Positions 3,701 to 52,696 of a stretch of DNA of 64,000 nucleotides are shown here, piece by piece. This stretch comes from an uncultured Bacilli bacterium (GTDB lineage: Bacteria; Bacillota_I; Bacilli_A; RF39; UBA660), in contig CALVYK010000002.1 of the NCBI GenBank assembly GCA_944372195.1, positions 4,422 to 68,421 on the forward strand. Direction: 5' to 3'. Numbering within the stretch: the first letter of the stretch is position 1; the number at the start of each line of letters is the position of its first letter. The position numbers were made by a program, and so were the translations under genes. Under the pieces are notes generated by a model. The model did no database searches, was not told where the DNA came from, and saw only the letters and a list, made by a program, of their open reading frames with translations.

Positions 3701-4156
3701 TTATAATCCACCTCCAAAATTTCGTTTTTTTGATTGCTTTATTAATTATATAGATAAAAGTTAATTTTGTCAAATATTTTATTTAATTTTTTTAAATATC
3801 TTTAATATTAAAACATAATTATTAATTTATAATTAATAATCAAAATTATATTTACTATTATAATACTTATTTTTTCAAAGATACGATCTATATTGAAAAA
3901 CTTATTTGTCATATTAGCTATTAAAATATTATTTATAAAAAGATAGTAAAAACTTAGTATATATTCATATTATATAATTTTTTTTATAATTTAAAAAAAT
4001 TTAATTCATAAAAAACATTTTACAAACAAATAATTAAATAATTACTTTTATATATTAATTAATATGAATACATAATTAATTTAATTAAAATTTTTATGTT
4101 AAAAATCATATTTTTTATATACTATACATTAACATTCAATTGATAAAATTTAATAG

Positions 4157-4306
4157 TTATCCACAATTTATTAAGTTATCCACATTTTTATTAACAATTG
4201 TGTAATATTTTATTAACAATTTCTTTGACATGTGGATACAGTTATCCACAAATATGTGTATAACTATTATTTCCCAATAATTTTAAGTATATTAGTGTGT
4301 GGAAAA
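4157..4306. promoter_or_regulatory. oriC part 1: DnaA-box cluster upstream of dnaA, preceded by a long A+T-only tract (about 3720-4150)
   Basis: Perfect TTATCCACA boxes at 4157-4165, 4176-4184 and 4242-4250. Reverse GTATCCACA at 4231-4239 and reverse TTTTCCACA at 4298-4306. Confidence 0.85.
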
Positions 4307-4384: not shown

Positions 4385-5746
4385 ATGGATATCAACAATA
4401 TTTGGAATTCTTTTTTAGAAAAAATGGAACAAAATCTAACACCAGTATTATATGATATGTGGTTTTCTGAAACTAAATTGGTAGAACTAAATGAAGAGTA
4501 TGCTAAAATATTGGTTCCAATGCCAGTGCATAAAAAACATTTAAAAGAAAATTATATTGATTTAATTGAAAAAACTTTTACTGATGTTACTGGTTCTATT
4601 TTTAAATTTGAGTTTGTAACAGAGGATGAATTAAATAGTAAAAATGTCATCGATGTTGATGAAATTGGAGTTCCGGAATCTGCTATTTTCCAGTCTAATC
4701 TAGATCCAAAGTATACTTTTGAATCTTTTGTTTCAGGAAGTAGTAATAAATTTGCAAAAGCATCTGCATTAGCAGTAGCTGAACAACCTGGTAGTATGTA
4801 TAATCCTTTATTTATATATGGGAAAAGTGGGTTAGGAAAAACACATTTAATGCACGCAATAGGTAATTATATAAAGGAAAATAGTAGAAAAAAGGTTTTG
4901 TATGTTACAGCAGACACTTTTGTTAATGATTTTTTAAAAATATATAGAAAAGATAATGATAGCAATTTTGATAATATTGATAATTTTAAAGAAAAATATC
5001 GTAATGTTGATGTACTTATGATAGATGATATTCAATATTTAGAAATAGCCCATAAAACACAACAAGAATTCTTCAATACTTTTAATGATTTATACACAAA
5101 TAATAAACAAATTATTATTGCTTCTGATAGATCTCCAGATGATTTAAAAAAATTAGAAGAAAGATTAAGAACACGATTTGTATGGGGATTAATAGTAAAT
5201 ATTCTTCCACCAGATTATCAATTAAGAATTGATATAATTGATCGTAAAATTGATAGTAATAATTTAAATACATTTTTTCCACAGGATGTTAAAGAATATA
5301 TTGCTAATAATTGTACTACAGATATTAGAAAACTTGAAGGAGCAATAACAAGGACCATTGCGTATGCTACTATTATGAATGGTTCTGATATAACATTGGA
5401 ACTTGCTATGGATGCTTTAAAAGATTATTTTGGTGGAAGCGTTATATCTAAAAATAAAATTGAGCAGGTACAACAAATAATCGCTAATAATTATAATATT
5501 GGCATTGAAGATATAAGAGGAAAAAGAAAATCAAATGACATAACAATTCCAAGACAAATTGCTATGTATATTTGTAGAATTTATTTAAAAGAATCATTAC
5601 CTAAAATAGGTGCTGAATTTGGTGGAAAAGATCATACAACAGTTATGCATGCTGTTAATAAAATTAAAAAAGAAGTCGAAACTAACGATGAACTAAATAT
5701 TGAAATAAATAAAGTTATTTCCCAACTACCGTGGATAACTAAATAA
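4385..5746 (+). CDS. dnaA: Chromosomal replication initiator DnaA
   Basis: Walker A GKSGLGKTHL, and a C-terminal DNA-binding helix DHTTVMHA. Confidence 0.97.
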   Translation: MDINNIWNSFLEKMEQNLTPVLYDMWFSETKLVELNEEYAKILVPMPVHKKHLKENYIDLIEKTFTDVTGSIFKFEFVTEDELNSKNVIDVDEIGVPESAIFQSNLDPKYTFESFVSGSSNKFAKASALAVAEQPGSMYNPLFIYGKSGLGKTHLMHAIGNYIKENSRKKVLYVTADTFVNDFLKIYRKDNDSNFDNIDNFKEKYRNVDVLMIDDIQYLEIAHKTQQEFFNTFNDLYTNNKQIIIASDRSPDDLKKLEERLRTRFVWGLIVNILPPDYQLRIDIIDRKIDSNNLNTFFPQDVKEYIANNCTTDIRKLEGAITRTIAYATIMNGSDITLELAMDALKDYFGGSVISKNKIEQVQQIIANNYNIGIEDIRGKRKSNDITIPRQIAMYICRIYLKESLPKIGAEFGGKDHTTVMHAVNKIKKEVETNDELNIEINKVISQLPWITK

Positions 5747-5820
5747 TTTCTACATAGTTATCCACCTTATAAAATAAGTTATTTTATAAAGGTTTTATAA
5801 AGTTATCCACATTATCCACA
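5730..5820. promoter_or_regulatory. oriC part 2: DnaA-box cluster between dnaA and dnaN
   Basis: Reverse TTATCCACG at 5730-5738 and TTATCCACC at 5758-5766. Two abutting perfect TTATCCACA boxes lie at 5803-5811 and 5812-5820. Confidence 0.8.
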
Positions 5821-5873
5821 TCTATAATAATAATATATATATATAATATAAATAAAAAAAGGAGCTGAAAATT

Positions 5874-13190: not shown

Positions 13191-13348
13191 TTTAATAATT
13201 TAAAAATAATAAGATTTTCTAGTTTAATTTTAATAATTGTAACATTGACACATATATTTAAAATTAAATTTTTTTGCGTATTAAAGACATAACTTTCTTC
13301 TAATTTTAAAAATTGGAAATAAATTACTTAAGTTATTAAACAATTCAA

Positions 13349-13803
13349 TGTTTCACGTGAAACTATAAATAATAAAGCAATTTAATGTTTTACGTGGAAC
13401 CATAAATAATAAAACAACTCAATGTTTCACGTGGAACTATAAGCAATAAAACAATTAAATGTTTCACGTGAAACTATAACAATAAAATAATTCAATGTTC
13501 CACGTGAAACTATAACAATAAAACAACTCAATGTTTCACGTGGAACTATAAGCAATAAAACAATTAAATGTTTCACGTGAAACTATAAACAATAAAACAA
13601 CTCAATGTTTCACGTGAAACTATAACAATAAAATGACCTAATGTTTCACGTGAAACTATAACAATAAAATAATTCAATGTTCCACGTGAAACTATAACAA
13701 TAAAACAACTCAATGTTTCACGTGGAACTATAAGCAATAAAACAATTAAATGTTTCACGTGAAACTATAAATAATAAAATAATTCAATGTTCCACGTGGA
13801 ACT
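13349..13803. repeat. Tandem array of 13 parS-like (ParB/Spo0J-binding) sites with a 36-37 bp unit
   Basis: Each unit carries TGTT(T/C)(C/T)ACGTG(A/G)AAC(T/C). The known parS consensus is TGTTNCACGTGAAACA. Site starts: 13349, 13386, 13423, 13460, 13496, 13532, 13569, 13606, 13642, 13678, 13714, 13751, 13788. Confidence 0.8.
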
Positions 13804-13990
13804 ATGAAATATATAGATAATAAATAAAATATTTAAAATTGTACATAAAAATTATTATAATTTTTAAAATGTAATATATTTATTGTTTAATTTTAAAAAT
13901 CAATTAATAATAATTGTTATTTGAATACTTAAAGTAAAATTAATGACTGAAATCATTGATTTTATAATAATATTATTGTATATTATATAT

Positions 13991-21249: not shown

Positions 21250-21270
21250 GTATCCTTTTTGGAGGTTATT

Positions 21271-24200
21271 ATGATATTTAATAAACTATTTAATGATTAT
21301 AGTAATAACGATATTGGTGGATTAACTGATGAATTAAAATGTATATATATTGCTAATAACTTTAAAGAAAATACCTTAGTTGTATGCAATAGTCTATATG
21401 AAGCCAATAAATTTTATCAAACTTTAAAAAACTATGTAGATAATGTCTACTTTTTTCCGATGGATGATTTTATGACTAGTCAAGTACTAGCTATATCTCC
21501 TGATTTTAAAATGACTAGATTAGAAACATTAAATAATATTGATGATAAATGTATCGTTGTAACTAATTTAATGGGCTATTTAAGATTTTTACCTCCAAAA
21601 GATATATTTAAAAAAAGTTTTATCAAATTAAAAGTAAATGATGATATTAAAGATTTAGATCGTAAATTATATGATATTGGTTATGAAAAAGATACTATAA
21701 TTAATAAATCTGGTGATATGGCTGTAAGAGGTTATGTAATTGATGTATTTCCCATTAACTATGATAACCCAATAAGAATAGAATTTTGGGGTGATACCAT
21801 TGAATCAATTAGAAAATTTGATATCAATACCCAATTAACTATTGAAACAATTGATGAAGTTGATATAATACCTAATACTGAAGAATTATCTAGTGATTAT
21901 GTAGATATCTATAGTTATTTAAATGGTAAAGTTTATTATAATGAATTTGAAGATATTAAAACAGGTTATGAGCAATTGATGAATGAAGTATTAGAGTATG
22001 ATACTAGTAAAAAATATTTCTTTGATTTTAAAGAATATGATTCTATTAAACTATCAAATAATTATGGTGAATTTAATTATAATTCATTTAAAATAGAAGA
22101 TAGATTTAATAATATTAAAGATATTCTAAAATATAAAAATAAAACTATTGTTATATGTGTCTCAAATCGATATCAAGCTAATAAAATAATCGATGAAATA
22201 GATTGTGTATTTACTAATGTTAATCAAATATTTGAAAAAAAAATAAATGTTGTAATATTTAATATCAATGAAGGATTTATTTTTAATGATTATGTTTTTA
22301 TATCTGAAAATGAAATATTTAACAAGAAAAATTCTATTCCATATAAGACTAATTTTAAATATGGCACTAAAATAAAAGATATATCAAAACTAGAAATAGG
22401 AGATTACGTAGTTCATAATGTTCATGGTATAGGTAGATATTTAGGTCTTAAAACTATGAATAAAAATGGCTTAATTAAAGATTATTTACAAATAGAATAT
22501 AAAGATGGCGATAAATTATATATTCCTGTTGAAAAGATAGATTTAATTAGTAAATATGCGTCTAAAGATGGTTATATACCTAAAATAAACAAATTAGGTT
22601 CATCTGAATGGTCTAAAGTTAAAATGAGGGCTCGCGCTAAAGCCCATGATATTGCTCAAGAATTACTTAAAACATTCGCTTTAAGAGAAGTAAATAAAGG
22701 CTTTAAATTTAAAGAAGATGATGAGACTCAAATATTATTTGAAAAACAATTTCCATACCAAGAAACACCTGATCAATTAAAAGTATTAGATGAGATTAAA
22801 AAAGATATGGAAAGCAGTCATCCAATGGATCGATTGTTGTGTGGTGATGTTGGATATGGTAAAACAGAAATAGCTTTTAGAGCTGCTTTTAAAGCAATAT
22901 TATCTGGTAAACAAGTAGCTTTATTATGTCCTACTACAATACTTTCAAATCAGCACTTTCTTAATGCTTTAGATAGATTTAAAGAGTTTCCTGTTAATAT
23001 AAGATTGATTAATCGTTTTACTACACCTAAAGTATATAAAGATACATTGTTAAAACTCCAAGAAGGTTCTATAGATTTTGTAATTGGTACACATAGATTA
23101 TTAAATGATGAAATTAAATATAAAGACTTAGGATTATTGATAATAGATGAAGAACAACGCTTTGGCGTAACACATAAAGAGAAAATAAAAAAATTAAAAA
23201 CTAATATTGATGTTTTAACTTTATCTGCTACTCCAATACCTCGTACCTTACAAATGTCTTTATCTGGTATTAAGGGGTTATCAACTATTGAAACTCCGCC
23301 CTCTAATAGATATCCTGTTCAAACTTATGTCTTAAATTACAATACTAAAATAATTAAAGACGCTATTTATAAAGAATTATCTAGATCAGGTCAATGTTTT
23401 ATTTTATATAATCATGTTGATAGTATTGCTTCTAAGGCAAAAGAAATTCAAGATTTAGTAAAAGATGCTAAAGTAGTATATGCTCATGGCAGAATGAATA
23501 AAACTGATATCGAAGATATAATGCTTAAATTTATAAATAAAGAATATGATGTTTTAGTTTGTACAACTATTATCGAAACAGGAATAGATATACCTAATGT
23601 TAATACATTAATTATATTAGAAGCTGACAGATTAGGTTTATCTCAATTATATCAATTAAGAGGAAGAGTAGGTCGTACTAACAAAATAGCTTATTGTTAT
23701 TTAATGTATAGTAAAATATTATCCGAAATAGCAACTAAAAGATTAAATGCTATTAAAGAATTTACTGAATTAGGTAGTGGATTATCAATTGCTCGAAGAG
23801 ATTTGTCACTAAGAGGAGCAGGTGATTTCTTAGGAGATGAACAATCAGGATTTATTGATTCAATAGGTATAGAATTATTTACAGAGTTACTAAAACAAGA
23901 AATAGATAAATTAAAAGGAGTATATGTTAAAGAAGAAGAAGATACACAACCATTAATTGAAGTAGATACTTATATATCTGATTCTTATGTTAAAGAAATG
24001 GATTTAAAAATAGAAATACATAAAAAAATAAATGAAATAGATTCTTATGATAAATTGGTATCAGTTCAAAAAGAATTAGAAGACAGATTTGGTAAATTAG
24101 ATGATAAATTAATTATTTATATGTATCAAGAATGGTTTGAATCATTAGCTTCTAAATTAAATATCATAAGTATTAAACAAAATTCTAAAGAAATAGAATT

Positions 24201-24387
24201 AACTATTGATTCAAATATTGATGGTGAGAAATTATTCTTAGAAACATTTAAAATAAGTAATAATTTTAGATTTGGAACTCGCGGTAAAAATTTAATTATT
24301 ACTTTAAAATTACAAGGATTAGAAAAACATTTTATTTATTACTTAATTGATTTATTATTCGTAATTGAAAAAGCAAAAAAAGTATAA
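21271..24387 (+). CDS. mfd: Transcription-repair coupling factor Mfd
   Basis: CarD-like domain GDYVVHNVHGIGRY, plus DEAD/helicase motifs GDVGYGKTE and DEEQRFG. I chose the ATG at 21271, after the GGAGG RBS. Confidence 0.95.
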   Translation: MIFNKLFNDYSNNDIGGLTDELKCIYIANNFKENTLVVCNSLYEANKFYQTLKNYVDNVYFFPMDDFMTSQVLAISPDFKMTRLETLNNIDDKCIVVTNLMGYLRFLPPKDIFKKSFIKLKVNDDIKDLDRKLYDIGYEKDTIINKSGDMAVRGYVIDVFPINYDNPIRIEFWGDTIESIRKFDINTQLTIETIDEVDIIPNTEELSSDYVDIYSYLNGKVYYNEFEDIKTGYEQLMNEVLEYDTSKKYFFDFKEYDSIKLSNNYGEFNYNSFKIEDRFNNIKDILKYKNKTIVICVSNRYQANKIIDEIDCVFTNVNQIFEKKINVVIFNINEGFIFNDYVFISENEIFNKKNSIPYKTNFKYGTKIKDISKLEIGDYVVHNVHGIGRYLGLKTMNKNGLIKDYLQIEYKDGDKLYIPVEKIDLISKYASKDGYIPKINKLGSSEWSKVKMRARAKAHDIAQELLKTFALREVNKGFKFKEDDETQILFEKQFPYQETPDQLKVLDEIKKDMESSHPMDRLLCGDVGYGKTEIAFRAAFKAILSGKQVALLCPTTILSNQHFLNALDRFKEFPVNIRLINRFTTPKVYKDTLLKLQEGSIDFVIGTHRLLNDEIKYKDLGLLIIDEEQRFGVTHKEKIKKLKTNIDVLTLSATPIPRTLQMSLSGIKGLSTIETPPSNRYPVQTYVLNYNTKIIKDAIYKELSRSGQCFILYNHVDSIASKAKEIQDLVKDAKVVYAHGRMNKTDIEDIMLKFINKEYDVLVCTTIIETGIDIPNVNTLIILEADRLGLSQLYQLRGRVGRTNKIAYCYLMYSKILSEIATKRLNAIKEFTELGSGLSIARRDLSLRGAGDFLGDEQSGFIDSIGIELFTELLKQEIDKLKGVYVKEEEDTQPLIEVDTYISDSYVKEMDLKIEIHKKINEIDSYDKLVSVQKELEDRFGKLDDKLIIYMYQEWFESLASKLNIISIKQNSKEIELTIDSNIDGEKLFLETFKISNNFRFGTRGKNLIITLKLQGLEKHFIYYLIDLLFVIEKAKKV

Positions 24388-24404
24388 AACTTTAAAAAAT
24401 TTTC

Positions 24405-24414
24405 CGCGCGCGCG
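24405..24414. repeat. (CG)5 alternating tract
   Basis: CGCGCGCGCG embedded in otherwise pure A+T intergenic DNA, 12 bp upstream of the predicted -35 of the DGR target gene. Confidence 0.9.
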
Positions 24415-24425
24415 TAATTTAGGTC

Positions 24426-24454
24426 TTGCAATTAATAAAAAAATAATGTATAAT
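24426..24454 (+). promoter_or_regulatory. Predicted sigma-A-type promoter of the DGR target gene
   Basis: TTGCAA (24426-24431), a 17-nt spacer, then TATAAT (24449-24454) with TG immediately upstream. Confidence 0.5.
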
Positions 24455-24497
24455 TACATTAAGGTAGTAAAACTATCATAGTGGAAGGGAGAAATTT

Positions 24498-25961
24498 ATG
24501 AAAAATAAAAAGTTAGGTTTTACTTTAATTGAACTATTAGCAGTTATTATTATATTAGCTATAGTAGCACTTATAGCTACACCAATAATATTAAATGTAA
24601 TAGATGATGAAGAATGTGATGGAGAAGAAGTAGTACAAGGAGAAAGTTTAATTACAACATTATTAGAACAATATAAAGAAGGAAATCAAAAAGGATTAGT
24701 AAAAGATAGTACTAATGAAAATTTATATTATTATACTGGAACAAATGAAGAAGTAAGTAATAACTTTTTATGGTACGGAGGCCATCAATGGAGGGTATTG
24801 GAGTTTGATAAAGAAAAGAAAACATTAACATTGATAACCCAACAACCATTAACAGCAATTCAACCAGCAAGTACTGTATGGACAACTAAAGAAGAATATA
24901 ATTCAAGTTATATAAATGCATGGTTAAATGAATATTTTTGGAATAGTTTAGATAGTAGTATTCAAAATAATATATTAAAGAGTACATTTAATGTAGGAAT
25001 ATATACAGATGTAGATGAAATTACAACAACTCAAAGAGTAGGATTATTAGATGAAGACCAATATAAAAGAGCAGGTGATGGAACAACTGGGAAAGATTCC
25101 TATTTAGATATAAAAGATTATTTTTGGTTAGGTAATAGATATAGTTCGTCTTACGTTTGCCGCGTCCACAGCCTTGGCGCCCTCAGCTACAGTATTCCTT
25201 CGAATGCGTACGGCGTTCGTGCAGTTATAAAAATTTCTGATATAACCATCACCGAAGGTAATGATGGTACTCTTGCGAGCAATTATCAAGTAGCAAATAA
25301 AGCAACGAATACTAGTAATGTACAAGTAGGAGAATATATAAATGTACCATATAGTGGAAGTGATAGTGCTTGCGGAAGTGATAATATGTGCACATTTAGA
25401 GTAGTAAGTAAAGATGAAGATAGTATAAAAGCAGTACTAAATGGATTACTTCCAACAACAAGTAAATATGGAAGTTCAACGACAATAAGTACGGGTCATA
25501 CAATATATCGCCCACTGAATACATTTGTCGAAGGAATAAGTGATATGTATCGATATACAGGAAATAAAACATTCTATATAGGAGATTATCCATATGTATC
25601 AGGAACAGGTCAAGATTATAAAGTAGTACAAGATGAAACATTAGAAGCAAGTATTGGATTACCAACAATAGGAGAGATGTTCAGTGGAAATGATATTGAT
25701 ATGGTATATCCTGTTGATGCTGCAAAAACATTTGTAGATGTAAACACAATAGAAAATCCAACTGCATCAAGTTGGTATTGGACAATGAATAGATATAGTT
25801 CGTCTTTCGTTCGCGGCGTCCACAACGATGGCACCCTCATCTACATTAGTCCTTCGCTTGCGTTCGGCGTTCGTGCAGTTATATATCTGAAGTCAGGGAC
25901 TTCAGCCATAACCTTCACTGGAGGTGAAGGTACTCCAAATTCACCGTATGTATTATCATAG
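24498..25961 (+). CDS. DGR target protein: type IV pilin-like N-terminus followed by two tandem variable ligand-binding (C-type-lectin-like) modules
   Basis: The N-terminus KKLG/FTLIELLAVIIILAIVALIA is a prepilin cleavage/methylation signal. Two paralogous modules end in ...NRYSSS(Y/F)V(C/R)(R/G)VH..G.L.Y..PS.A(Y/F)GVRAVI, and both segments match the TR. Confidence 0.85.
   Translation: MKNKKLGFTLIELLAVIIILAIVALIATPIILNVIDDEECDGEEVVQGESLITTLLEQYKEGNQKGLVKDSTNENLYYYTGTNEEVSNNFLWYGGHQWRVLEFDKEKKTLTLITQQPLTAIQPASTVWTTKEEYNSSYINAWLNEYFWNSLDSSIQNNILKSTFNVGIYTDVDEITTTQRVGLLDEDQYKRAGDGTTGKDSYLDIKDYFWLGNRYSSSYVCRVHSLGALSYSIPSNAYGVRAVIKISDITITEGNDGTLASNYQVANKATNTSNVQVGEYINVPYSGSDSACGSDNMCTFRVVSKDEDSIKAVLNGLLPTTSKYGSSTTISTGHTIYRPLNTFVEGISDMYRYTGNKTFYIGDYPYVSGTGQDYKVVQDETLEASIGLPTIGEMFSGNDIDMVYPVDAAKTFVDVNTIENPTASSWYWTMNRYSSSFVRGVHNDGTLIYISPSLAFGVRAVIYLKSGTSAITFTGGEGTPNSPYVLS
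25139..25226 (+). other. DGR variable region 1 (VR1)
   Basis: 88-nt match to the TR. By hand count there are 22 mismatches, 15 of them at TR adenines. Confidence 0.85.
25793..25880 (+). other. DGR variable region 2 (VR2)
   Basis: 88-nt match to the TR. By hand count there are 21 mismatches, 16 of them at TR adenines. Confidence 0.85.
25887..25905 (+). promoter_or_regulatory. GC-containing hairpin just 3' of VR2 (candidate DGR target-recognition hairpin/cruciform)
   Basis: CTGAAGTC-AGG-GACTTCAG, an 8-bp perfect stem that starts 7 nt after the end of VR2. Confidence 0.5.
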
Positions 25962-26041
25962 AAATTTAATTATCATAGAAAAAAAAGAAACTCTTATAAA
26001 TAAAGGGTTTCTTTTTGACTTTTCTCTGATAACAATTATAA
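25951..26041. repeat. RIT left inverted repeat (IR-L)
   Basis: It is the reverse complement of 29189-29279. It contains two ATTATCATAGAA sub-repeats (25952, 25969) and a terminator-like hairpin AAGAAAC...GTTTCTT. It overlaps the last 11 nt of the target CDS, including the stop codon. Confidence 0.9.
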
Positions 26042-27010
26042 ATTTAATAGTTGGTTTAGTAAATTTTGATCTTCATTCCAATCTGGTAATTTATCATTAA
26101 ATTTTGGATTAACTTTTTCAATAGCTTCAAATTTTGATTTTTCAATCACTTTGGCATATTCCATTGTCGTAATAATAGAAGAATGACCAAGAAGCTCTTG
26201 TATATATACTATATTGACACCTTTATCTAATAAATGCACTGCTCTTGTATGTCTAAATGTATGTGGAGATATTTTTTTATTTAAATTATTAGTACTTTTT
26301 ATAACATCTCTTATAAAATCATTATTCATTCGTTTTCCATTTTTATTAAATAAATAACCATTTTCAATTTTATTTTCTTTAATATATTTAATTAATAAAG
26401 TTTTAGTTTGTTCCATTATAGATACAACTCTTTGTTTGTTACATTTTCCTGTCAAAATAATATACTTGTTTTCTAAATGAATATCATCTATTTTTAAATT
26501 AATAATTTCACTAGCTCTTGCAGCTGTGTCATAAAGAATTGTGAGTAATGTTAAATTTCTTCTACCTTTATTAGTAGACGTATCAATATTATCAAAAAGA
26601 TTTTTTAATTCATCTTCTCTTAGATAAAGAATTACTTTCTTTACTTCTCTTTTTGCTTTAATTGATAATATCTTTCTTATATTATCAATATTATCTATTT
26701 CATCTACTGCACAATATTGGTAAAAAGATTTTATACTTGCCAATCTTTGATTTCTAGTTCTAATACTGTTTTTTTTATTATTTTCTAAATAACTTAAAAA
26801 TTCCAAAATTATTTCTCTAGTTACATTTTCAAATGTGATATTTTTTATTTCGAATCCTTTAACATTGACTAAATATTCTATTAATATTTGAAAAGTTTTT
26901 TTATAGGAACGAATAGTGTGTAATGACATATTTCTTTCTATAATTAAATAATCTTTTAAAAATTTTGATAAATAATATGGAAAGTTTTTATTCATTTGTT
27001 TCACCAACAT
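26036..27010 (-). CDS. Tyrosine recombinase, RitC-like
   Basis: 324 aa with the phage-integrase catalytic signature ...HTFRHTRAVHLL...LLGHSSIITTMEY. Confidence 0.8.
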   Translation of the reverse strand: MLVKQMNKNFPYYLSKFLKDYLIIERNMSLHTIRSYKKTFQILIEYLVNVKGFEIKNITFENVTREIILEFLSYLENNKKNSIRTRNQRLASIKSFYQYCAVDEIDNIDNIRKILSIKAKREVKKVILYLREDELKNLFDNIDTSTNKGRRNLTLLTILYDTAARASEIINLKIDDIHLENKYIILTGKCNKQRVVSIMEQTKTLLIKYIKENKIENGYLFNKNGKRMNNDFIRDVIKSTNNLNKKISPHTFRHTRAVHLLDKGVNIVYIQELLGHSSIITTMEYAKVIEKSKFEAIEKVNPKFNDKLPDWNEDQNLLNQLLNL

Positions 27011-27947
27011 CTGGAATTAAATATCCTAGTTCCTTTTCAGATATATTATTAACTGTTTTTAGAATATCTTTGTTAATATGAAAATAATAAGAAACAGAAT
27101 CTATACTTTTATGACCTAATTGAACCTCTAGTATAGGCATAATTATATTAATATCTTTATCCAATTTTATATACTTATCAATATTATGAACGACAAAAGT
27201 GTGCCTCAAATCGTGTAATCTTGGCCCTTTATCAGTTATTTTTATATTTGATAAAATTAATACTTTTCTAAAATACTTTATAATACTATTTTTAGATGTT
27301 TTAAAAATATTTTCATTTGATTTATTATTACGAAAAAATTTAATGACGAAATAATTTATTTCTTTGTTTAAACCATCTGAAATAGCAACATATCTTTCTT
27401 CATTATTTTTTGAATTTCTAATTTTGAAGATAGATAAATTGAAATAATAATCTTTAATTTTAAGATTTAAAACTTCACCTATACGCATACCTGTCTGGTA
27501 AAGGATTTTAATTACTAAAGGATAAGCTATTTGTTTATAATAGTCGTAATGATAACTATTCAAAGGAATTTTTAAATTTAAATAAATTAATTTTATTTCT
27601 TTATATGAAAATATATAAGGTAAAAAATTGTTATGATTTTGTGGATATACTTTATTAGGTATTTGATAACAATCTATATTTTTTTGATATTTTAAATATT
27701 TACAAAATTCTCTAAATACGATCATATTTCTAGATATAGCATTTGAAGATAAATTAAGATTTAATCGTGCATAATTTTCGGTAACATCTTTTGTTATTTC
27801 GTTAACATTATTTTTTATTAAATATTGTTTAATTGCTTTAATAATTGTTTGTTCTGTTTTATATTTATAACCTAAAAATTGTTTAAATTGAATAAATTCA
27901 TCAAATATGATATTATAATCATACATTATTGTTCTACCTCCAAACAA
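26988..27947 (-). CDS. Tyrosine recombinase, RitB-like
   Basis: 319 aa with RLHDLRHTFVVH...LGHKSIDSVSYY. Confidence 0.8.
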   Translation of the reverse strand: MFGGRTIMYDYNIIFDEFIQFKQFLGYKYKTEQTIIKAIKQYLIKNNVNEITKDVTENYARLNLNLSSNAISRNMIVFREFCKYLKYQKNIDCYQIPNKVYPQNHNNFLPYIFSYKEIKLIYLNLKIPLNSYHYDYYKQIAYPLVIKILYQTGMRIGEVLNLKIKDYYFNLSIFKIRNSKNNEERYVAISDGLNKEINYFVIKFFRNNKSNENIFKTSKNSIIKYFRKVLILSNIKITDKGPRLHDLRHTFVVHNIDKYIKLDKDINIIMPILEVQLGHKSIDSVSYYFHINKDILKTVNNISEKELGYLIPDVGETNE

Positions 27948-29143
27948 ACTTTTTTTAAATTTTTTATATCAATTTTTAAATAAGTAGAAACTGTTGTATT
28001 TATGTTTGAGTGACCTAAGGTAGACGATATAATGGGTATGGGAATATTATTATCTAACATATTTGTAGCCAATGAATGTCTTAGATTATGTATTCCTTTT
28101 TTTGTATTTTTAACTTCAAAATCACATTTATCAAAATATTTATTAAAATCAGTAAAATAATTTAATTTTTCAAATGGATATTTCATCTTAACAAATAAAT
28201 ATTCATTTTTACATTTAGGTCTAGCTTTTCTTATATAATTAATAATTGCCCATCCAACTTCTTTTGACAAAGGTAATGTATTTAGATTATTTGTTTTGGG
28301 CTGAATAACATTTATTTTATAATTTTTCCAATCAATGTCTTTTAATTTGATATTTAAAATGTCACTTATTCTAAGTCCAAGTCTAGCAGCAATTAAAATA
28401 ATGGTATAACTTCTAATGTCTATATTTTTTTCTTTAGGGATACTTTCGAGTAATTTTTGAACTTCATCAACTTTTAAATATGTAGGTAATTTTCTTTTGT
28501 TTTTCCCATGTATTACAGGAATATAAACTGATAAATCTTCTAATAATATGTTTTCTATAAATAAATATTTTAGAAAATCTCTTAAAACATAAAAATTTTT
28601 TCTTTTAGATGTATTACCTTTTTCTACAATTTTATTTATAAATTTTGTTATATCTAATCTAGACAAATTTTCTATTTTATTAATACCATTTTGATAAAAA
28701 TAAGACAATAGATTAATTAGATAACTTTTTTTAATAAATAAACTACTATCAGAATTTTGTTTTATATTTTTTGCATAATCTAAATAATTATCTAAAATAA
28801 TGTTCCAATTATTAGGATAATTAGAATATAAAGCATTAGGTAAACTTCTCTTCAAAATAAAATTTTTATATGCATTAAAATCATCAAGAATCCTTTTGGA
28901 TCTCATTAATTGTTGATATCTCGATTTTGATTTGTTTGTATATTTATTTACATCAAAATTATAATAATCAAACAAAAAATTACAATAGTCTTGTTCATTA
29001 TAAATAAAATAATTCTCATTTTTCCAAATTATAAACTTCTTCCATATCTTTAGATAACCATCCATAGTTTTTATAGAATATCCAATTTCAAGTGCCTCCT
29101 TTCTAATGTTTTTAATATATGTTTTAAAATCTTGTGTATTCAT
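27926..29143 (-). CDS. Tyrosine recombinase, RitA-like (largest, first in the operon)
   Basis: 405 aa with GLRISD...HNLRHSLATNML...LGHSNINTTVSTY. An AAGGAG RBS lies upstream. Confidence 0.8.
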   Translation of the reverse strand: MNTQDFKTYIKNIRKEALEIGYSIKTMDGYLKIWKKFIIWKNENYFIYNEQDYCNFLFDYYNFDVNKYTNKSKSRYQQLMRSKRILDDFNAYKNFILKRSLPNALYSNYPNNWNIILDNYLDYAKNIKQNSDSSLFIKKSYLINLLSYFYQNGINKIENLSRLDITKFINKIVEKGNTSKRKNFYVLRDFLKYLFIENILLEDLSVYIPVIHGKNKRKLPTYLKVDEVQKLLESIPKEKNIDIRSYTIILIAARLGLRISDILNIKLKDIDWKNYKINVIQPKTNNLNTLPLSKEVGWAIINYIRKARPKCKNEYLFVKMKYPFEKLNYFTDFNKYFDKCDFEVKNTKKGIHNLRHSLATNMLDNNIPIPIISSTLGHSNINTTVSTYLKIDIKNLKKVCLEVEQ

Positions 29144-29188
29144 ATATACACGCTCCTTTTCTAGCTGACTCTATGCCAGCAGAAAATA

Positions 29189-29279
29189 TTATAATTGTTA
29201 TCAGAGAAAAGTCAAAAAGAAACCCTTTATTTATAAGAGTTTCTTTTTTTTCTATGATAATTAAAGTTCTATGATAATA
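29189..29279. repeat. RIT right inverted repeat (IR-R)
   Basis: It is the reverse complement of IR-L. TTCTATGATAAT sub-repeats lie at 29250 and 29267, with a third copy just outside at 29293. Confidence 0.9.
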
Positions 29280-29365
29280 TATATTATCAGAGTTCTATGA
29301 TAATATGTATTACAATAAGCAAATTTAGTAGGAATAATAGTAATGTATAAACGAAGAAAAGACAC

Positions 29366-29390
29366 ACCTTGCCGATGAAAATGGCAAGGT
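29366..29390 (+). other. GC-rich hairpin 24 nt upstream of the TR
   Basis: ACCTTGCC-GATGAAAAT-GGCAAGGT, an 8-bp stem. It may be part of the DGR RNA. Confidence 0.4.
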
Positions 29391-29413
29391 TAGGCAAATA
29401 TGGGTGTAAGGCT

Positions 29414-29501
29414 ATATAGTTCGTCTAACGTTCGCAACGTCAACAACAATGGCAACCTCAACAACAATAGTCCGTCGAACAGTAACGGCGTGCGTGCAGA
29501 T
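29414..29501 (+). other. DGR template repeat (TR)
   Basis: Adenine-rich. In the target frame it reads YSSSNVRNVNNNGNLNNNSPSNSNGVRA, with 11 AAC/AAT codons. It is not inside any ORF and is co-oriented with the VRs and the RT. Confidence 0.85.
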
Positions 29502-29679
29502 TCCTTTTAAACTGAGATTTATATGACTAAGGTTATGTAAAGAGAAGCACTGGGAAACAAGCCTTATTCCCTAGGTATAAATCCTAAAAATATTGGTGAT
29601 AGTACAACTAGAATAAAAGTGGTTTAGTAGAGTAAAATCGAAAAATCGCTTTTTCTTTTGTATTTTTTTGAATAAACAC

Positions 29680-29711
29680 TTGACAACGTGTGTGTGTGTG
29701 TGTGTGATAAT
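29680..29711 (+). promoter_or_regulatory. Predicted promoter of the MutS-like/avd/RT operon, with a (GT)9.5 microsatellite as its spacer
   Basis: TTGACA (29680-29685), a 20-nt spacer made almost entirely of GT repeats, then TGT-GATAAT (an extended -10, hexamer 29706-11). An AGGTGA RBS and the ATG at 29729 follow. Confidence 0.5.
29688..29706. repeat. (GT)9.5 dinucleotide microsatellite
   Basis: GTGTGTGTGTGTGTGTGTG read directly from the sequence. Confidence 0.95.
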
Positions 29712-29728
29712 ATTATCTAGGTGATGAT

Positions 29729-30139
29729 ATGAGATTAGTTGATTTAAGAAATGAATTAAAAGAAGATTATAAAGCTGCAGTTATATTTATGAGATATGGT
29801 AATTTTTATCGGGTATTTGATGATGATTGTTATATTATAGGTGGTTTATTAGGTTATAGAATATATGATAATAGAGTAGGATTTCCTATAACAGAATATA
29901 AAAAAGTAAAAAAAGTATTAGATAGAAATAATATTAGTTATATATTTTATAATATATGTGAAAGTATAAAAGAATTAAATAGTTATGATTTAGTATTGAA
30001 TTATTATAAAAATTATTTTTATAAAAAGGATTTGATGAATCTATTAATAGAACATGATGTTATAAATGAATTAGAAAAAATATTAATATTAATTGATAAA
30101 GATAGGTTAAATAACTTGAGGGAAAAGTATGAAAGATAA
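29729..30139 (+). CDS. DGR accessory protein with a MutS domain-I-like (mismatch-binding domain) N-terminus
   Basis: AVIFMRYGNFYRVFDDDCYIIGGLLGYRI...VGFPITEYKKVKKVLDRNNISY parallels MutS domain I (GDFYELFfeDA...L.itLT....aGvP.h....y...L...G..V). It overlaps avd by 11 nt. Confidence 0.55.
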   Translation: MRLVDLRNELKEDYKAAVIFMRYGNFYRVFDDDCYIIGGLLGYRIYDNRVGFPITEYKKVKKVLDRNNISYIFYNICESIKELNSYDLVLNYYKNYFYKKDLMNLLIEHDVINELEKILILIDKDRLNNLREKYER

Positions 30140-30470
30140 ATTTTATATAATAATTGAAGTTAAAAAAACTATTAATTATATAAATAAAATAATAGTTAAT
30201 TATCCTAAGGTAGAATATGTATTAAAAAATAATATTGAGTTAAGTAGTTATAAGTTATTAGAATATTGTTATAAAGCTAATATTTTAAAAGAAAATAGGT
30301 TAAATTATCAAAAGAAAATAATAATAATTATAAGGATGATTGATTATTATTTTTATTTAAGTTATTTAAATAAATTAATTAATAAAAACAAATATGAAAG
30401 TATTAGTAATTATTTATTAAATATAACTAAATATGTTTATGGGTGGATTAGAAGTGAAAAGGGTAAATAA
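30129..30470 (+). CDS. avd: DGR accessory variability determinant (Avd), four-helix-bundle family
   Basis: 113 aa, predicted helical. The C-terminus ITKYVYGWIRSEKGK resembles the bAvd C-terminus (ILGSWIARVNRK). It lies immediately upstream of the RT and overlaps it. Confidence 0.7.
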   Translation: MKDKFYIIIEVKKTINYINKIIVNYPKVEYVLKNNIELSSYKLLEYCYKANILKENRLNYQKKIIIIIRMIDYYFYLSYLNKLINKNKYESISNYLLNITKYVYGWIRSEKGK

Positions 30471-31428
30471 TTTATATAATCAATTATTTGATATTAATTT
30501 TATTTTAAATACTTATAATATTATTAAAAAGAATACAAAGAATAAAAATAAATTAGAAAAGTTTGAGGAAAATTTATCAATTAATTTAATTGATATTAAA
30601 GATAAAATAGGTAAGAATATCGATAAATATAATTTATTTATGATTTATGAACCTAAAGAAAGATTAATATTAAGTTTAAATTTGAAGGATAAAATTATTA
30701 ATCATATGGTTGGCTATATTTTATTTGATGTATTAGAAAAGAGTTTAATTGATAGTAATGTAGCTGTTAGAGTTAATAAAGGTACTAGTTATGGTATTAA
30801 GTTAGTTAAAAAATATATTAAGAATCTAAATTATAATTATTATTGTTTAAAGATTGATATTAAAAAGTATTTTTATAGTATTAATCATAATATTTTAAAA
30901 GATTTATTAAATAAAAAAATAAAGGATAAATTATTTTTAGATATTGTTTATAAAATAATTGATAGTACTGATAGTGATTATATATTTGAATATGCGAAAA
31001 AACATAACATTATTTTAAAAAAAGGATATGGATTAAGTATTGGTAATTTAACTAGTCAAATATTAGGTATATTTTATTTAAATAATTTAGATCATTATAT
31101 TAAAGAAGAATTAAAAATAAATTATTATATTAGATATATGGATGATATGGTATTATTTCATAAGGATAAAGAATATTTAAATTACTGTTTAGATAAAATT
31201 ACAATTTATTTAAAAGAATATGATTTAGAATTAAATAATAAAACAATTATAACTAAAAATAGTTTATGTTTTTTAGGTTATAGATTTTACAATAAAAAGA
31301 TTAAAATATTAAGTAAAAATAAAAGAAGAATATATAAAAAATTAAGAATATTAAAATATAAAGATTATAACAAATATATTAAATCATTAAGTAGTTATTA
31401 TGGTTATTTTAAAGTACAGAAGTATTAA
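30433..31428 (+). CDS. DGR reverse transcriptase
   Basis: RT motifs KIDIKKYFYSINH, GLSIGNLTSQ (the DGR-typical I/LGxxxSQ), YIRYMDDMVLF and FLGYRF. There is no maturase or endonuclease domain. The true start may be the GTG at about 30454. Confidence 0.9.
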   Translation: MFMGGLEVKRVNNLYNQLFDINFILNTYNIIKKNTKNKNKLEKFEENLSINLIDIKDKIGKNIDKYNLFMIYEPKERLILSLNLKDKIINHMVGYILFDVLEKSLIDSNVAVRVNKGTSYGIKLVKKYIKNLNYNYYCLKIDIKKYFYSINHNILKDLLNKKIKDKLFLDIVYKIIDSTDSDYIFEYAKKHNIILKKGYGLSIGNLTSQILGIFYLNNLDHYIKEELKINYYIRYMDDMVLFHKDKEYLNYCLDKITIYLKEYDLELNNKTIITKNSLCFLGYRFYNKKIKILSKNKRRIYKKLRILKYKDYNKYIKSLSSYYGYFKVQKY

Positions 31429-31901
31429 GAATTTTTAGATAATTCTATTTCCATTTGTTCTTTTATTTTATCTATATCTGTAAAAAACAAATTAATTCCT
31501 TTATCTTTCAATTTCATTAATTTTTTAAATTCTTTTAGTATTATTTTACTTAAGGTTTCAGGAACTTTAGCTGGTATATTATCTATAGTATGGATATGGT
31601 CAATATATTTTTCTAAAGTAGGAAAAGCATTTTGTAATAATATAGCGGTTTTTCTATCAAATATTTTTTCTATTAAAATAGTATTACAAAATCCATATCT
31701 TTTAATTTTATTATTTACTATTTTTTCATATTTTTCTACTTTACTGCTTAATGGAATAAACCATAATATATCTTTATCTTTGATGGTAAAATAAGTTGGT
31801 CTTTTTTTCCCTTTTTCATGATTAGCCATCAAGTTATCATCATTTACTGTGTCAAAAAATTCATCTTTTATGTGATATAAATATCCAGTTTTTATTTCCA
31901 T
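31425..31901 (-). CDS. Type III toxin-antitoxin toxin, ToxN/AbiQ-like endoribonuclease
   Basis: The 158-aa protein starts MEIKTGYLYHIKDEFFD...KKRPTYF...ILWFIPLSSKVEKY, which resembles the ToxN/AbiQ N-terminal core (FY.I...Y......RP....YF.APLSSPK.KH). Upstream lie a terminator and tandem structured repeats. I chose the ATG at 31899-31901 because of its GAGGAG RBS. Confidence 0.6.
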   Translation of the reverse strand: MEIKTGYLYHIKDEFFDTVNDDNLMANHEKGKKRPTYFTIKDKDILWFIPLSSKVEKYEKIVNNKIKRYGFCNTILIEKIFDRKTAILLQNAFPTLEKYIDHIHTIDNIPAKVPETLSKIILKEFKKLMKLKDKGINLFFTDIDKIKEQMEIELSKNS

Positions 31902-31944
31902 ATTTATCTCCTCTCTAATTAAGTATTTAAAATTATAGCACATA

Positions 31945-31980
31945 TAAAAAGAAAACTCTATCTATTAAGATAAAGTTTTC
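31945..31980 (-). terminator. Intrinsic terminator between the antitoxin repeats and the toxin gene
   Basis: The minus-strand RNA is GAAAACUUUAUCU-UAAU-AGAUAGAGUUUUC followed by UUUUUAU. This is the same position as the terminator in toxIN loci. Confidence 0.7.
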
Positions 31981-31987
31981 AAACATT

Positions 31988-32090
31988 TTCAACTAGGATA
32001 ATTTATTAATTCGCAAGCCACCTAGAAGCGAGAAACATTGTCGACCGGGATTATTTATTACTCGCAAACCACCCGGAAGCGAGAAACATT
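31988..32090 (-). ncRNA. Candidate type III antitoxin RNA: two full tandem repeats of 51-52 nt plus partial flanking copies
   Basis: The two repeats are about 80 percent identical and each begins AAUGUUUCUCGCUUC. The internal helix CCGGG/CCCGG in one copy is replaced by CUAGG/CCUAG in the other, which is a compensatory change. It nests with a CUCGC/GCGAG helix, so a pseudoknot is possible. Confidence 0.6.
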
Positions 32091-32106
32091 TTCTAAATGC
32101 AATATT

Positions 32107-32135
32107 AATATACATTATTTTAAAATATTTGTCAA
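32107..32135 (-). promoter_or_regulatory. Predicted promoter of the antitoxin-toxin transcript
   Basis: On the minus strand: TTGACA (32130-32135), a 17-nt spacer, then TATATT (32107-32112). Confidence 0.5.
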
Positions 32136-32208
32136 TATTGCACTTATATTATATGTAAAATTTAGTATATAATTTAATATATTGTTTAAACTAACTTTGA
32201 GGTGAACA

Positions 32209-32721
32209 ATGAAAACAGGAGTTATAAGAAGAATCGATGAGTTAGGAAGAATAGTTATACCTAAAGAAATAAGAAGAAGTTTAAGAATTAAAGAAGGAGA
32301 AAGTTTAGAAATATTAGTTGATAATGAAAATATTATTTTAAAAAAATATTCTTTAATTAAAAATTTAAATGATTTTGCTCAAAATATAACTGATTCGATT
32401 AAATCCTTTATTAAAAATAGTGTCTTAATATGTGATACTGATAGTATAATTGCCGTATCTGGTGATTTAAAAAAACAATTATTAAATAAAAAAATAGGTA
32501 GTGATTTAGAAGTTAAATTAAATAGAAGAGAAGAAATGCTAGAAAAACATAAAAAATTAATAAAAATAAGTGATGAAATGGAATGTTGCTATGCTGTTAG
32601 TCCTATTATCGTTAATAGTGATGTTATTGGTTTAGTAATGATCATAGGTGATGAAGTTGATGAAACTGATTTAAAGTTAACCCAAATAGTAGCTAGATTT
32701 TTAACTAATCATTTAGAATAA
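32209..32721 (+). CDS. spoVT: Stage V sporulation protein T (AbrB-type N-domain + GAF-like C-domain)
   Basis: MKTGVIRRIDELGRIVIPKEIRRSLRIKEGESLEI at the N-terminus, and 170 aa long. spoVT follows mfd in B. subtilis. Confidence 0.88.
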   Translation: MKTGVIRRIDELGRIVIPKEIRRSLRIKEGESLEILVDNENIILKKYSLIKNLNDFAQNITDSIKSFIKNSVLICDTDSIIAVSGDLKKQLLNKKIGSDLEVKLNRREEMLEKHKKLIKISDEMECCYAVSPIIVNSDVIGLVMIIGDEVDETDLKLTQIVARFLTNHLE

Positions 32722-32819
32722 ATGTAAAAATTGCGTAAAATGTCGTTATTTGAATATTAAAAATGTTGTTATATAACAAATATCTATGATATATTATTAA
32801 CATAGAAGGGAATATTACT

Positions 32820-32987
32820 ATGGAACAAAAATTAATAGATATTACGCCGTTGGCTTTATTATTTCTGCCAGTTATAATAGCTGTAATAAGCGTAATAATA
32901 GACTTTAATGTAGTAGATTTTGTTTATGTAGTATTAGTAGGTATTTTATTTTTAAGATATTTTATAGTAACAAGAAAACAAAATTAA
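32820..32987 (+). CDS. Small hydrophobic protein (55 aa)
   Basis: My hand translation is MEQKLIDITPLALLFLPVIIAVISVIIDFNVVDFVYVVLVGILFLRYFIVTRKQN. An AGAAGGGA RBS lies upstream. It is below the ORF-track cutoff. Confidence 0.35.
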   Translation: MEQKLIDITPLALLFLPVIIAVISVIIDFNVVDFVYVVLVGILFLRYFIVTRKQN

Positions 32988-33014
32988 TTTTTGTTTTTTT
33001 TAGGAGGTAAAGTA

Positions 33015-51799: not shown

Positions 51800-52696
51800 A
51801 TGTGTTGTGATAAAGCAAATGGAGATAAAATGATGTGTTGTGCACCACTTAAACGTTTATATCTAGTCCCAGGGCCAATGGGAGCAACCGGACCAACTGG
51901 TCCAACAGGCCCAACTGGAGCTACAGGTATAGCTGGTCCAACTGGACCAACAGGACCAATTGGTGCGACAGGTCCAACCGGAAGTGTTGAATCTAATCCT
52001 TATAATTTATATGTTCAATCTACAGCAGCTCCTGGTGGGGATGGAAGTCAAATTTCACCATTTCAAACAATTGAACAGGCATTAGCTGTAGCACAACCAA
52101 ATGGTGTTATAAATGTTTTAAGAGGTAATTATCCTATTACAAATCAAATTAATTTAAATATACCTGGATTAACAATAAAAGGAAGAGCAGGTGCAGAAAT
52201 TTTACTTCAGGCTCCAGTAGTACCATTTTTAATTAGTAGTGACAATACAACGATTGATGGATTAACTATGACTAGTGATCAACCATATCCAGTTGAGTTT
52301 ATTCAAATTGGTAGTAATGGAGATCAAATATTAAATTGCCAGATCTATGGACCACCTCAATCTGGTGATTCTTCAACGTGGGTAGTAAATAGAGGATTTG
52401 TAACGCAAGTAAATACTACAAATTTATTGGTACGCAATAATATTTTTCATACATTACGCCAACCTGCATATTTAAATCCTAATTCTACAGGTACTATTAT
52501 GGATAATGTTGTATACAATACTCGAGGATATGTTGTTGATCGAGCAATATTCATATTTTCTGGAAATTCTTGGGGAATTCCTGAAAATGCAGTAGATATT
52601 GCATTACTTGCAGGAACTATATCGGGTGCACCTTATGATCCACTTCAAGCATTACAATCTAGTAATAGTGATGCCACTATTAGTGATCAGCGATAA
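51800..52696 (+). CDS. Collagen-like (GPT/GxT triplet) spore-surface protein, BclA-like, with a beta-helix-like C-terminal domain
   Basis: About 13 uninterrupted Gly-X-Thr triplets ([34 protein letters not shown]) follow a Cys-rich N-terminus [14 protein letters not shown]. It lies next to the cotJ genes. Confidence 0.7.

Follow-up and report, generated by a model that had tools for sequence, protein, structure and literature searches.

A GT microsatellite that fills the spacer of a candidate retroelement promoter is conserved and hypermutable in gut bacteria, and probably tunes the supply of mutagenesis machinery

Within contig CALVYK010000002.1 of an uncultured Bacilli bacterium (NCBI GenBank assembly GCA_944372195.1), the 64,000 nt from position 4,422 to 68,421 of the forward strand, here called the window and numbered from its first letter, carry a diversity-generating retroelement (DGR). 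Its genes for a MutS-domain-I-like (MSL) protein, an Avd-like accessory protein and a reverse transcriptase (RT) follow a promoter-like block whose -35 and -10 elements are separated almost entirely by GT repeats. As judged from consensus assemblies and the comparison of their sequences, which form the evidence base throughout, the GT tract is conserved in two DGR clades of related gut bacteria, is hypermutable, and probably tunes the amount of mutagenesis machinery made. The reading towards which we lean, with a confidence only a little better than even, is that of a sigma-A-type msl-avd-RT promoter in which a slippage-tunable (GT)n spacer would serve as an expression dial, its 20-nt length being the low default.

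The features on which this depends, in the order target, template repeat (TR) unit, terminator-like hairpin, promoter, msl, avd and RT, are as follows.

24498-25961, + strand: DGR target gene, with a prepilin-like N-terminus (Pfam N_methyl, E=2.6e-7; DUF6273)
25134-25229 and 25788-25883: variable repeats VR1 and VR2, both in the target gene (repeat search)
29343-29408, + strand: conserved 5' part of the TR RNA unit, including a hairpin, ACCTTGCC/GGCAAGGT, at 29356-29380 (alignment A2)
29409-29504, + strand: TR (direct-repeat family D1, with the two VRs)
29615-29669, + strand: conserved hairpin and T-rich run (arms 29615-29625 and 29643-29653, T-run 29650-29669), ending 10 nt upstream of TTGACA
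29680-29685, + strand: -35 hexamer TTGACA, part of the proposed msl-avd-RT promoter (direct read)
29686-29705, + strand: 20-nt spacer, AC followed by (GT)9 (direct read)
29688-29706, + strand: (GT)9.5 microsatellite (Tandem Repeats Finder, TRF: period 2, 9.5 copies, 100% matches)
29703-29711, + strand: extended -10 TGTGATAAT, i.e., TG-n-GATAAT, with its hexamer at 29706-29711 (direct read)
29719-29724, + strand: Shine-Dalgarno sequence AGGTGA, 4 nt before the ATG and kept as AGG(G)TGA in relatives
29729-30139, + strand: ORF136, the MSL accessory gene and first gene after the tract
30129-30470, + strand: avd-like accessory gene, overlapping ORF136 by 11 nt
30433-31428, + strand: DGR reverse transcriptase (Pfam RVT_1, E=9e-18)

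The TG of the extended -10 is always supplied by the 3' end of the GT repeat, and the promoter-like block ends 17 nt upstream of the operon's ATG, that of ORF136 at 29729. We infer an active promoter here, with a predicted transcription start at about 29718-29719, a leader of only some 10 nt, and expression that would depend on repeat number. Overlapping the -10 is a perfect 12-bp palindrome, GATAATATTATC at 29706-29717, whose perfect form is confined to the lineages of the window and of L008 (GATAATATTATT elsewhere); it may be an operator, or an accident of AT-rich DNA. On inspection alone, TTGACAAC and GATAATATTATC were rejected as a Fur box, a cre site, a Spo0A box or a site for a sporulation sigma factor, the matches being poor and the palindrome so restricted, and a pUG-fold RNA was rejected because the tract is too short.

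Is such a tract to be expected by chance? In the whole 64-kb window (GT)6 with at most one mismatch is found inside the tract only, 0.09 matches being expected, and none of 100 dinucleotide-preserving shuffles reaches the observed count. An earlier note on this DNA, made from its letters, had pointed to TTGACA, a 20-nt spacer of nearly all GT and an extended -10 at 29680-29711, and had held the tract very unlikely to be accidental; direct reading and TRF bear out the first of these, and the counts the second. Recognition of a promoter by its hexamers is another matter. A scan for loose sigma-70-like hexamer pairs admitted 16-18-nt spacers only, which is why the 20-nt site is absent from it, and found 26 pairs where 30.7 were expected, i.e., the chance level. 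Sorted by spacer length, the loose pairs had a flat distribution like that of the shuffles, and the approach was set aside as uninformative at the window's G+C content of 24.6%. As hexamer matches are near-meaningless in DNA so rich in A and T, the promoter call must rest on comparative evidence. The usable baseline was exact TTGACA in intergenic DNA only: there are three other such sites with a good -10 in the window and all have 17-nt spacers, so that the geometry of the polymerase looks ordinary.

The comparison took in 85 loci, 80 of them in clade 1 (MSL 60-100% identical) and five in clade 2 (MSL 35-52% identical to that of the window), from independent metagenome assemblies and GTDB metagenome-assembled genomes labelled uncultured Bacilli or Tenericutes, two of the loci having been added by a scan of metagenome contigs. 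Every locus has the same order before the MSL gene: a hairpin and T-run, 10-60 nt, TTGACA, 1-2 bases, (GT)n, the -10, a Shine-Dalgarno sequence and the start codon. TTGACA is invariant at the 5' edge of the tract in 85/85 loci of both clades, and on the -10 side GATAATATTAT is invariant in clade 1, with TGT-TATTAT at the matching place in clade 2; in both clades the block from hairpin through TTGACA and (GT)n to the -10 stays while the surrounding sequence diverges. These invariant flanks, just after a conserved terminator-like hairpin, support the placing of the tract in the msl-avd-RT promoter, as the earlier note had it. Interruptions occur in four of the 85 tracts. Because the tract is pure in most loci, and because the window at its G+C content holds no other GT run of six or more units, it is judged to be maintained by selection; since (GT)9 would not last by chance in this genome, selection is taken to act on both its purity and its usual length. 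Searches of genome and viral collections with the 15-mer TTGACAACGTGTGTG gave mostly chance matches and, among the matches listed, the full TTGACAAC(GT)n..ATAAT context is in DGR loci only. One candidate relative, L205, was rejected as an unrelated, ordinary 17-nt promoter-like site.

How variable, then, is the length? Among loci with identical MSL proteins, spacers are of 20 nt (six loci) and 22 nt (one) in P0001, the lineage of the window; of 18 (two), 20 (five) and 22 nt (three) in P0011; of 18 (two) and 20 nt (six) in P0047; and of 12 (four) and 20 nt (three) in P0005. Alleles of 18, 20 and 22 nt, and of 12 and 20 nt, separate loci with 0/600 differences in the downstream flank, and three clade-2 loci only 2-6/600 nt apart have spacers of 15, 19 and 21 nt. 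Recurrence of the variant alleles in several independent samples argues that they are not assembly noise, and by these comparisons the tract is hypermutable. The constraint is just as plain, the spacers of the 80 clade-1 loci being of 20 nt in 57, 22 in six, 18 in five, 12 in four and 10 in eight; a length of 9 nt was found at L016 and L239. A 16- or 17-nt spacer is never a consensus among the 80 clade-1 loci, and 17 is also absent from the five of clade 2. The lineages P0049, P0015 and P0039 each have 20 nt in 10/10, and the P0015 loci differ at up to 47/600 nt and yet are all of 20 nt.

What does the prevailing length mean for activity of the retroelement? In P0015, where the ten samples with 20 nt have an identical TR, the VRs comprise six haplotypes with 9-17 differences from it, all at TR adenines but for a single position in a single sample. 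It follows that the DGR is active while the consensus stays at 20 nt, and that this length does not stand for a dead OFF state. In spacer libraries with consensus hexamers in Escherichia coli, output was high at 15-19 bp, 'moderate' above 19 bp and lower still below 15 bp, and TGTG(TG) at the 3' end of the spacer increased RNA polymerase binding and damped output (PMC8695583). Together with the extended -10, those data predict low but non-zero activity at 20 nt. A different association is seen where the tract has collapsed. In the P0037 lineage 7/7 samples have a 10-nt spacer, (GT)4, and in all three samples examined (L240, L242 and L246) the RT is frameshifted and without residues 99-210; at L013, where the spacer is likewise of 10 nt, the TR is gone from an otherwise conserved unit. 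Either the tract was freed from selection once the DGR had failed, or its collapse came first and silenced the operon; whichever the order, the long tract is tied to DGR function.

The mechanism that would follow, in the reading towards which we lean, is that replication adds or removes GT units in the slippage-prone (GT)n that makes up the whole spacer between a consensus -35, TTGACA, and the extended -10, TGTGATAAT, shifting their distance in 2-nt steps, and that the shift would heritably and reversibly change the amounts of MSL, Avd and RT, with template RNA coming from a separate unit just upstream that is ended by the terminator-like hairpin. The 20-nt allele would be a deliberately sub-optimal 'low', with basal initiation by way of the extended -10 and the -35 mis-phased; the 18-nt allele would be a higher setting; and tracts collapsed to 9-12 nt would be near-off and stable.

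The main rival is stricter and had been the proposal of the earlier note, namely that 20 nt is OFF and 18 or 16 nt ON. In its fuller form 20 and 22 nt are silent and rare 18- or 16-nt variants express the RT, diversify the target and slip back, so that consensus genomes would show the OFF allele nearest to ON. There is something to be said for it, as 20 nt is outside the 15-19-bp range of high activity (PMC8695583), 18-nt alleles are in only 5/80 loci with the optimal 16 and 17 never a consensus, as would be expected if ON were costly and transient, and the alleles of a repeat biased to contraction would accumulate at the OFF length next above the ON window. It has to meet, however, the six VR haplotypes of P0015 at 20 nt in 10/10, which would need repeated excursions from 20 to 18 and back to 20 with sweeps; an extended -10 that should permit some -35-independent initiation; and 22-nt alleles that are no commoner than those of 18 nt, even though 20 and 22 are on this proposal equally 'OFF'. 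We regard it as unlikely, though deserving of a place ahead of the other rivals. Of the phase-variable switch as originally put forward, a promoter subject to slippage has found support, the repeat number being far from invariant in near-identical loci (18, 20, 22 and 12 nt). The strict ON/OFF logic has not, with 20 nt in 57 of the 80 clade-1 loci, the P0015 VRs rewritten at that length and the 16-nt allele missing.

Might the opposite hold, with 20 nt as the functional state and the other lengths as deleterious slippage noise? On that proposal (GT)9 is a fixed-geometry, twist-dependent element, made usable by high negative supercoiling, a B-to-Z transition of its alternating purines and pyrimidines or a twist-correcting activator like MerR, SoxR or Mu C. 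Lengths peak sharply at 20 nt in the face of hypermutability, and in lineages whose MSL proteins diverge by as much as about 25%, as it would require, and negative supercoiling favours long spacers with an effect proportional to (n-17), the known twist activators using spacers of 19 nt (PMC9303308). Against this, (GT)n is without the dyad symmetry of MerR-type operators, a Pfam scan of 10 neighbouring open reading frames (ORFs) gave no MerR-like gene, clade 2 has no fixed length (15, 19 and 21 nt in near-identical loci), and the variant alleles recur in independent samples and so are not quickly purged. The Z-DNA route was dropped as a rescue of the spacing, since by simple arithmetic a tract in Z-form would lengthen, not shorten, the distance from -35 to -10. 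All told, we would give the proposal little credence.

Where the template RNA comes from bears on whether a promoter is needed at all. From GTAYAAACGAAG through the TR to the T-run there is strong non-coding conservation over about 330 nt (alignment A2). In clade 1 the closing hairpin at 29615-29653 has by RNAalifold 16 pairs, two of which have compensatory changes from GC to AU and several one-sided changes, with two G-C pairs and an invariant loop; it was too weak to be called by a terminator scan of the window. Clade 2 has at the matching place, about 60 nt upstream, a canonical terminator containing G+C. The arrangement suggests that the TR RNA unit is a separate upstream transcription unit closed by a terminator-like hairpin, in line with the earlier supposition that the TR is outside the enzyme transcription unit, and by its position the pair formed by TTGACA and the -10 is exactly where a new promoter would be needed after the end of that unit. 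A search of 24000-33000 against Rfam at E<=1 gave only chance miRNA-like matches on the inverted repeats of a mobile element described below, and no RNA family on the TR unit or the tract. We think it very improbable that the block is no promoter, with transcription running on into the operon out of the TR unit or the target gene and with a tract that is functionless or a (GU)n RNA leader element with a role in structure, translation or RT or Avd binding. The weakness of the clade-1 hairpin, its invariant loop (suggestive of RNA recognition rather than plain termination) and the unusually short leader predicted from the proposed promoter all fit such an idea. Against it, TTGACA and the -10 block border the tract precisely and without variation in either clade as neighbouring bases vary, clade 2 has its canonical terminator, Rfam offers no family, and no defined RNA structure would survive changes in length between 9 and 22 nt.

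Several points nevertheless weigh against the expression dial. With so weak a hairpin in clade 1, the operon could also be expressed from transcripts that run on out of the TR unit. The predicted leader begins at the Shine-Dalgarno sequence itself. The mode at 20 nt is very sharp and persists across lineages with 20-25% MSL divergence, unlike the wide spread of lengths usual at classical contingency loci. No clear pattern was seen between tract length and the 'freshness' of VRs, taken as their non-adenine mismatches to the TR. The copy in the window may moreover itself be dormant, without recent homing, because at TR 29474-29492 there are five non-adenine differences common to both VRs (G to T, C to T, G to C, T to G and G to T); it seems that the TR of this lineage changed, from GAATACGAAC-like to GAACAGTAAC, without a rewriting of the VRs. 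From consensus assemblies, promoter activity is a prediction and switching within populations a possibility.

That a DGR is present is clear from an RT gene beside a TR that matches VRs in a target, with differences mostly at adenines: 14-15 of the 20-21 differences between the TR and VR1 or VR2 in the window, and 9-17 of 9-17 in relatives, are at TR adenines. For the accessory proteins the evidence is more varied. Only over residues 9-45 does ORF136 match Pfam MutS_I (E=8e-5; score 23.3 bits, cut-off 20.6), and its homologues, most of which carry PF01624, form 69 clusters; a profile search of the PDB gave no match to it and its AlphaFold2 model, with a pLDDT (predicted local distance difference test) of 44, was unusable. 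It is the short Pfam match that makes ORF136 a putative MutS-I protein, the MSL accessory class being one already described (PMC5758913). The avd-like gene matches Pfam bAvd at E=6e-7, its score of 30.4 bits falling short of the curated 40; homologues of 118 amino acids have an unmarked bAvd match in precomputed annotations and a size and position that fit Avd, and the position is kept in all relatives. In one P0015 locus, L047, avd is split at 1101-1391 into ORFs of 42 and 54 amino acids, with the 20-nt spacer kept, which could be a sequencing error or a recent inactivation.

The target gene has two VRs, VR1 mid-protein and VR2 C-terminal, both matching the single TR, which suggests that its variable domain was duplicated, and its protein is of 564-587 amino acids in relatives and 487 in the window. 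In the P0047 lineage the TRs of otherwise identical loci differ at adenines (GAATACGAATGG in L221, L223 and L224 vs GGATGCGCTCGG in L222), as if a TR had been mutagenised at adenines or converted from a VR.

The neighbourhood holds other elements.

21259-24387: mfd (Pfam search)
25947-29303: mobile element resembling the recombinase-in-trio (RIT) type, recombinase ORFs on the - strand (repeat and Pfam searches)
25947-26041 and 29189-29283: its inverted-repeat arms, 95 nt, 98% complementary
26036-27010, 26988-27947 and 27926-29143, - strand: its tyrosine recombinases of 324, 319 and 405 amino acids (Phage_integrase)
31425-31943, - strand: ORF172, without a Pfam match
32209-32721: spoVT (Pfam search)

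The three adjacent tyrosine recombinase genes, the terminal inverted repeats and the presence or absence of the whole as a unit are those by which RITs are defined (PMC10214605). The element lies at TATGTATTA, within the final codons of the target gene, where ...SPYVLQ* becomes ...SPYVLS*, and it separates the target from the TR by 3.3 kb; it is present in L002, the site is empty in L001, L003 and L004, and there is a 26-nt duplication at its right junction, 29265-29314.

Further repeats are found at a distance. The stretch 13338-13805 is made up of 12.8 tandem copies of a 37-nt unit that contains the palindrome TTTCACGTGAAA, with higher-order periods of 146 and 182 nt and without spacers, and so iteron-like rather than CRISPR-like. 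Tandem perfect DnaA-box sequences (TTATCCACA, 2.1 copies) are at 5803-5821 and a further repeat, ending in TTATCCAC, at 4147-4194; with mfd and spoVT nearby, DnaA boxes presumably mean that the window may adjoin the chromosomal origin. The stretches 31981-32090 and 32107-32135 (minus strand) take in a 51-nt unit in 2.1 copies, in the gap between ORF172 and spoVT, and, upstream of it, a minus-strand promoter-like consensus, TTGACA-17-TATATT. A repeat with a 9-nt period at 51885-51978, CAACTGGTC-like and in 10 copies with a 27-nt higher order, might on the opposite strand code for a collagen-like Gly-X-Y stretch, as of a BclA-like spore-surface protein in an organism that carries spoVT.

Why should a spacer of 20 nt merit attention? 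Little is understood of what turns DGRs on, many being silent in culture and a few constitutive (bioRxiv 10.1101/2024.11.15.621889), and a promoter microsatellite that is conserved and polymorphic is a concrete candidate for a control point both heritable and reversible. If the expression dial is real, second-order selection would be acting on a device for targeted mutagenesis. Beyond this there is a pair of bolder ideas that we hold to be a long shot. One is that one hypermutation system gates another, the contingency microsatellite determining in each lineage if a DGR diversifies the pilus-like surface protein and to what degree, with feedback through MSL, the first gene under its control: were MSL to damp mismatch repair so as to protect heteroduplexes of cDNA and VR, the operon when expressed would make its own GT tract slip more often, and a self-limiting feedback would return cells to the low 20-nt state. 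The alternative is a torsion switch, in which the 20-nt spacer with (GT)9 would couple DGR activity to DNA supercoiling.

Among systems already known, promoters with a repeat in the spacer include the overlapping hifA and hifB promoters of Haemophilus influenzae with TA repeats between them, the porA, opc and fetA promoters of Neisseria meningitidis with poly-G/C, and the vlp promoters of Mycoplasma hyorhinis with poly-A. As in these, a perfect short repeat fills the spacer between -35 and -10, slippage would shift the spacing in unit steps, and repeat number varies among close strains. In contrast to them, the unit here is GT and the repeat's 3' end doubles as the TG of the extended -10, the genes that would be controlled are a mutagenesis machine (MSL, Avd and RT) rather than a surface antigen, and the prevailing allele is a sub-optimal 20 nt with length strongly centred, the likeness being drawn here from sequence. 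Two of four marks of a simple sequence repeat contingency locus in a promoter spacer are seen in these sequences, a repeat between recognisable -35 and -10 elements and polymorphism among close strains. In the titles and abstracts listed by a literature search on DGR, phase variation and promoter, no repeat-controlled DGR expression is described.

Twist-dependent promoters (MerR/PmerT, SoxR/soxS and Mu C/mom; PMC9303308) share with this one good hexamers that are mis-phased by a 19-20-nt spacer, whereas here the spacer has no dyad operator and is polymorphic in length, and no cognate regulator gene is nearby (10 ORFs). To the MSL-type DGRs (architecture D of Wu et al. 2018, PMC5758913; Bacteroides Bfr, Bth and Bun, bioRxiv 10.1101/2024.11.15.621889) it is alike in its RT, in its candidate Avd-like and small MutS-domain-I-like proteins, in TR/VR differences at TR adenines and in a surface target of pilus type. 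It departs from them in that, given the gene order of target, TR, hairpin, promoter, msl, avd and RT, the TR appears to be in a transcription unit of its own; a single target gene carries both VRs and codes for a prepilin-type N-terminus; and the host is an uncultured, low-G+C, Bacilli-class bacterium. If the dial is borne out, a spacer repeat of GT dinucleotides that itself supplies the extended -10 would join the known kinds of bacterial contingency promoter.
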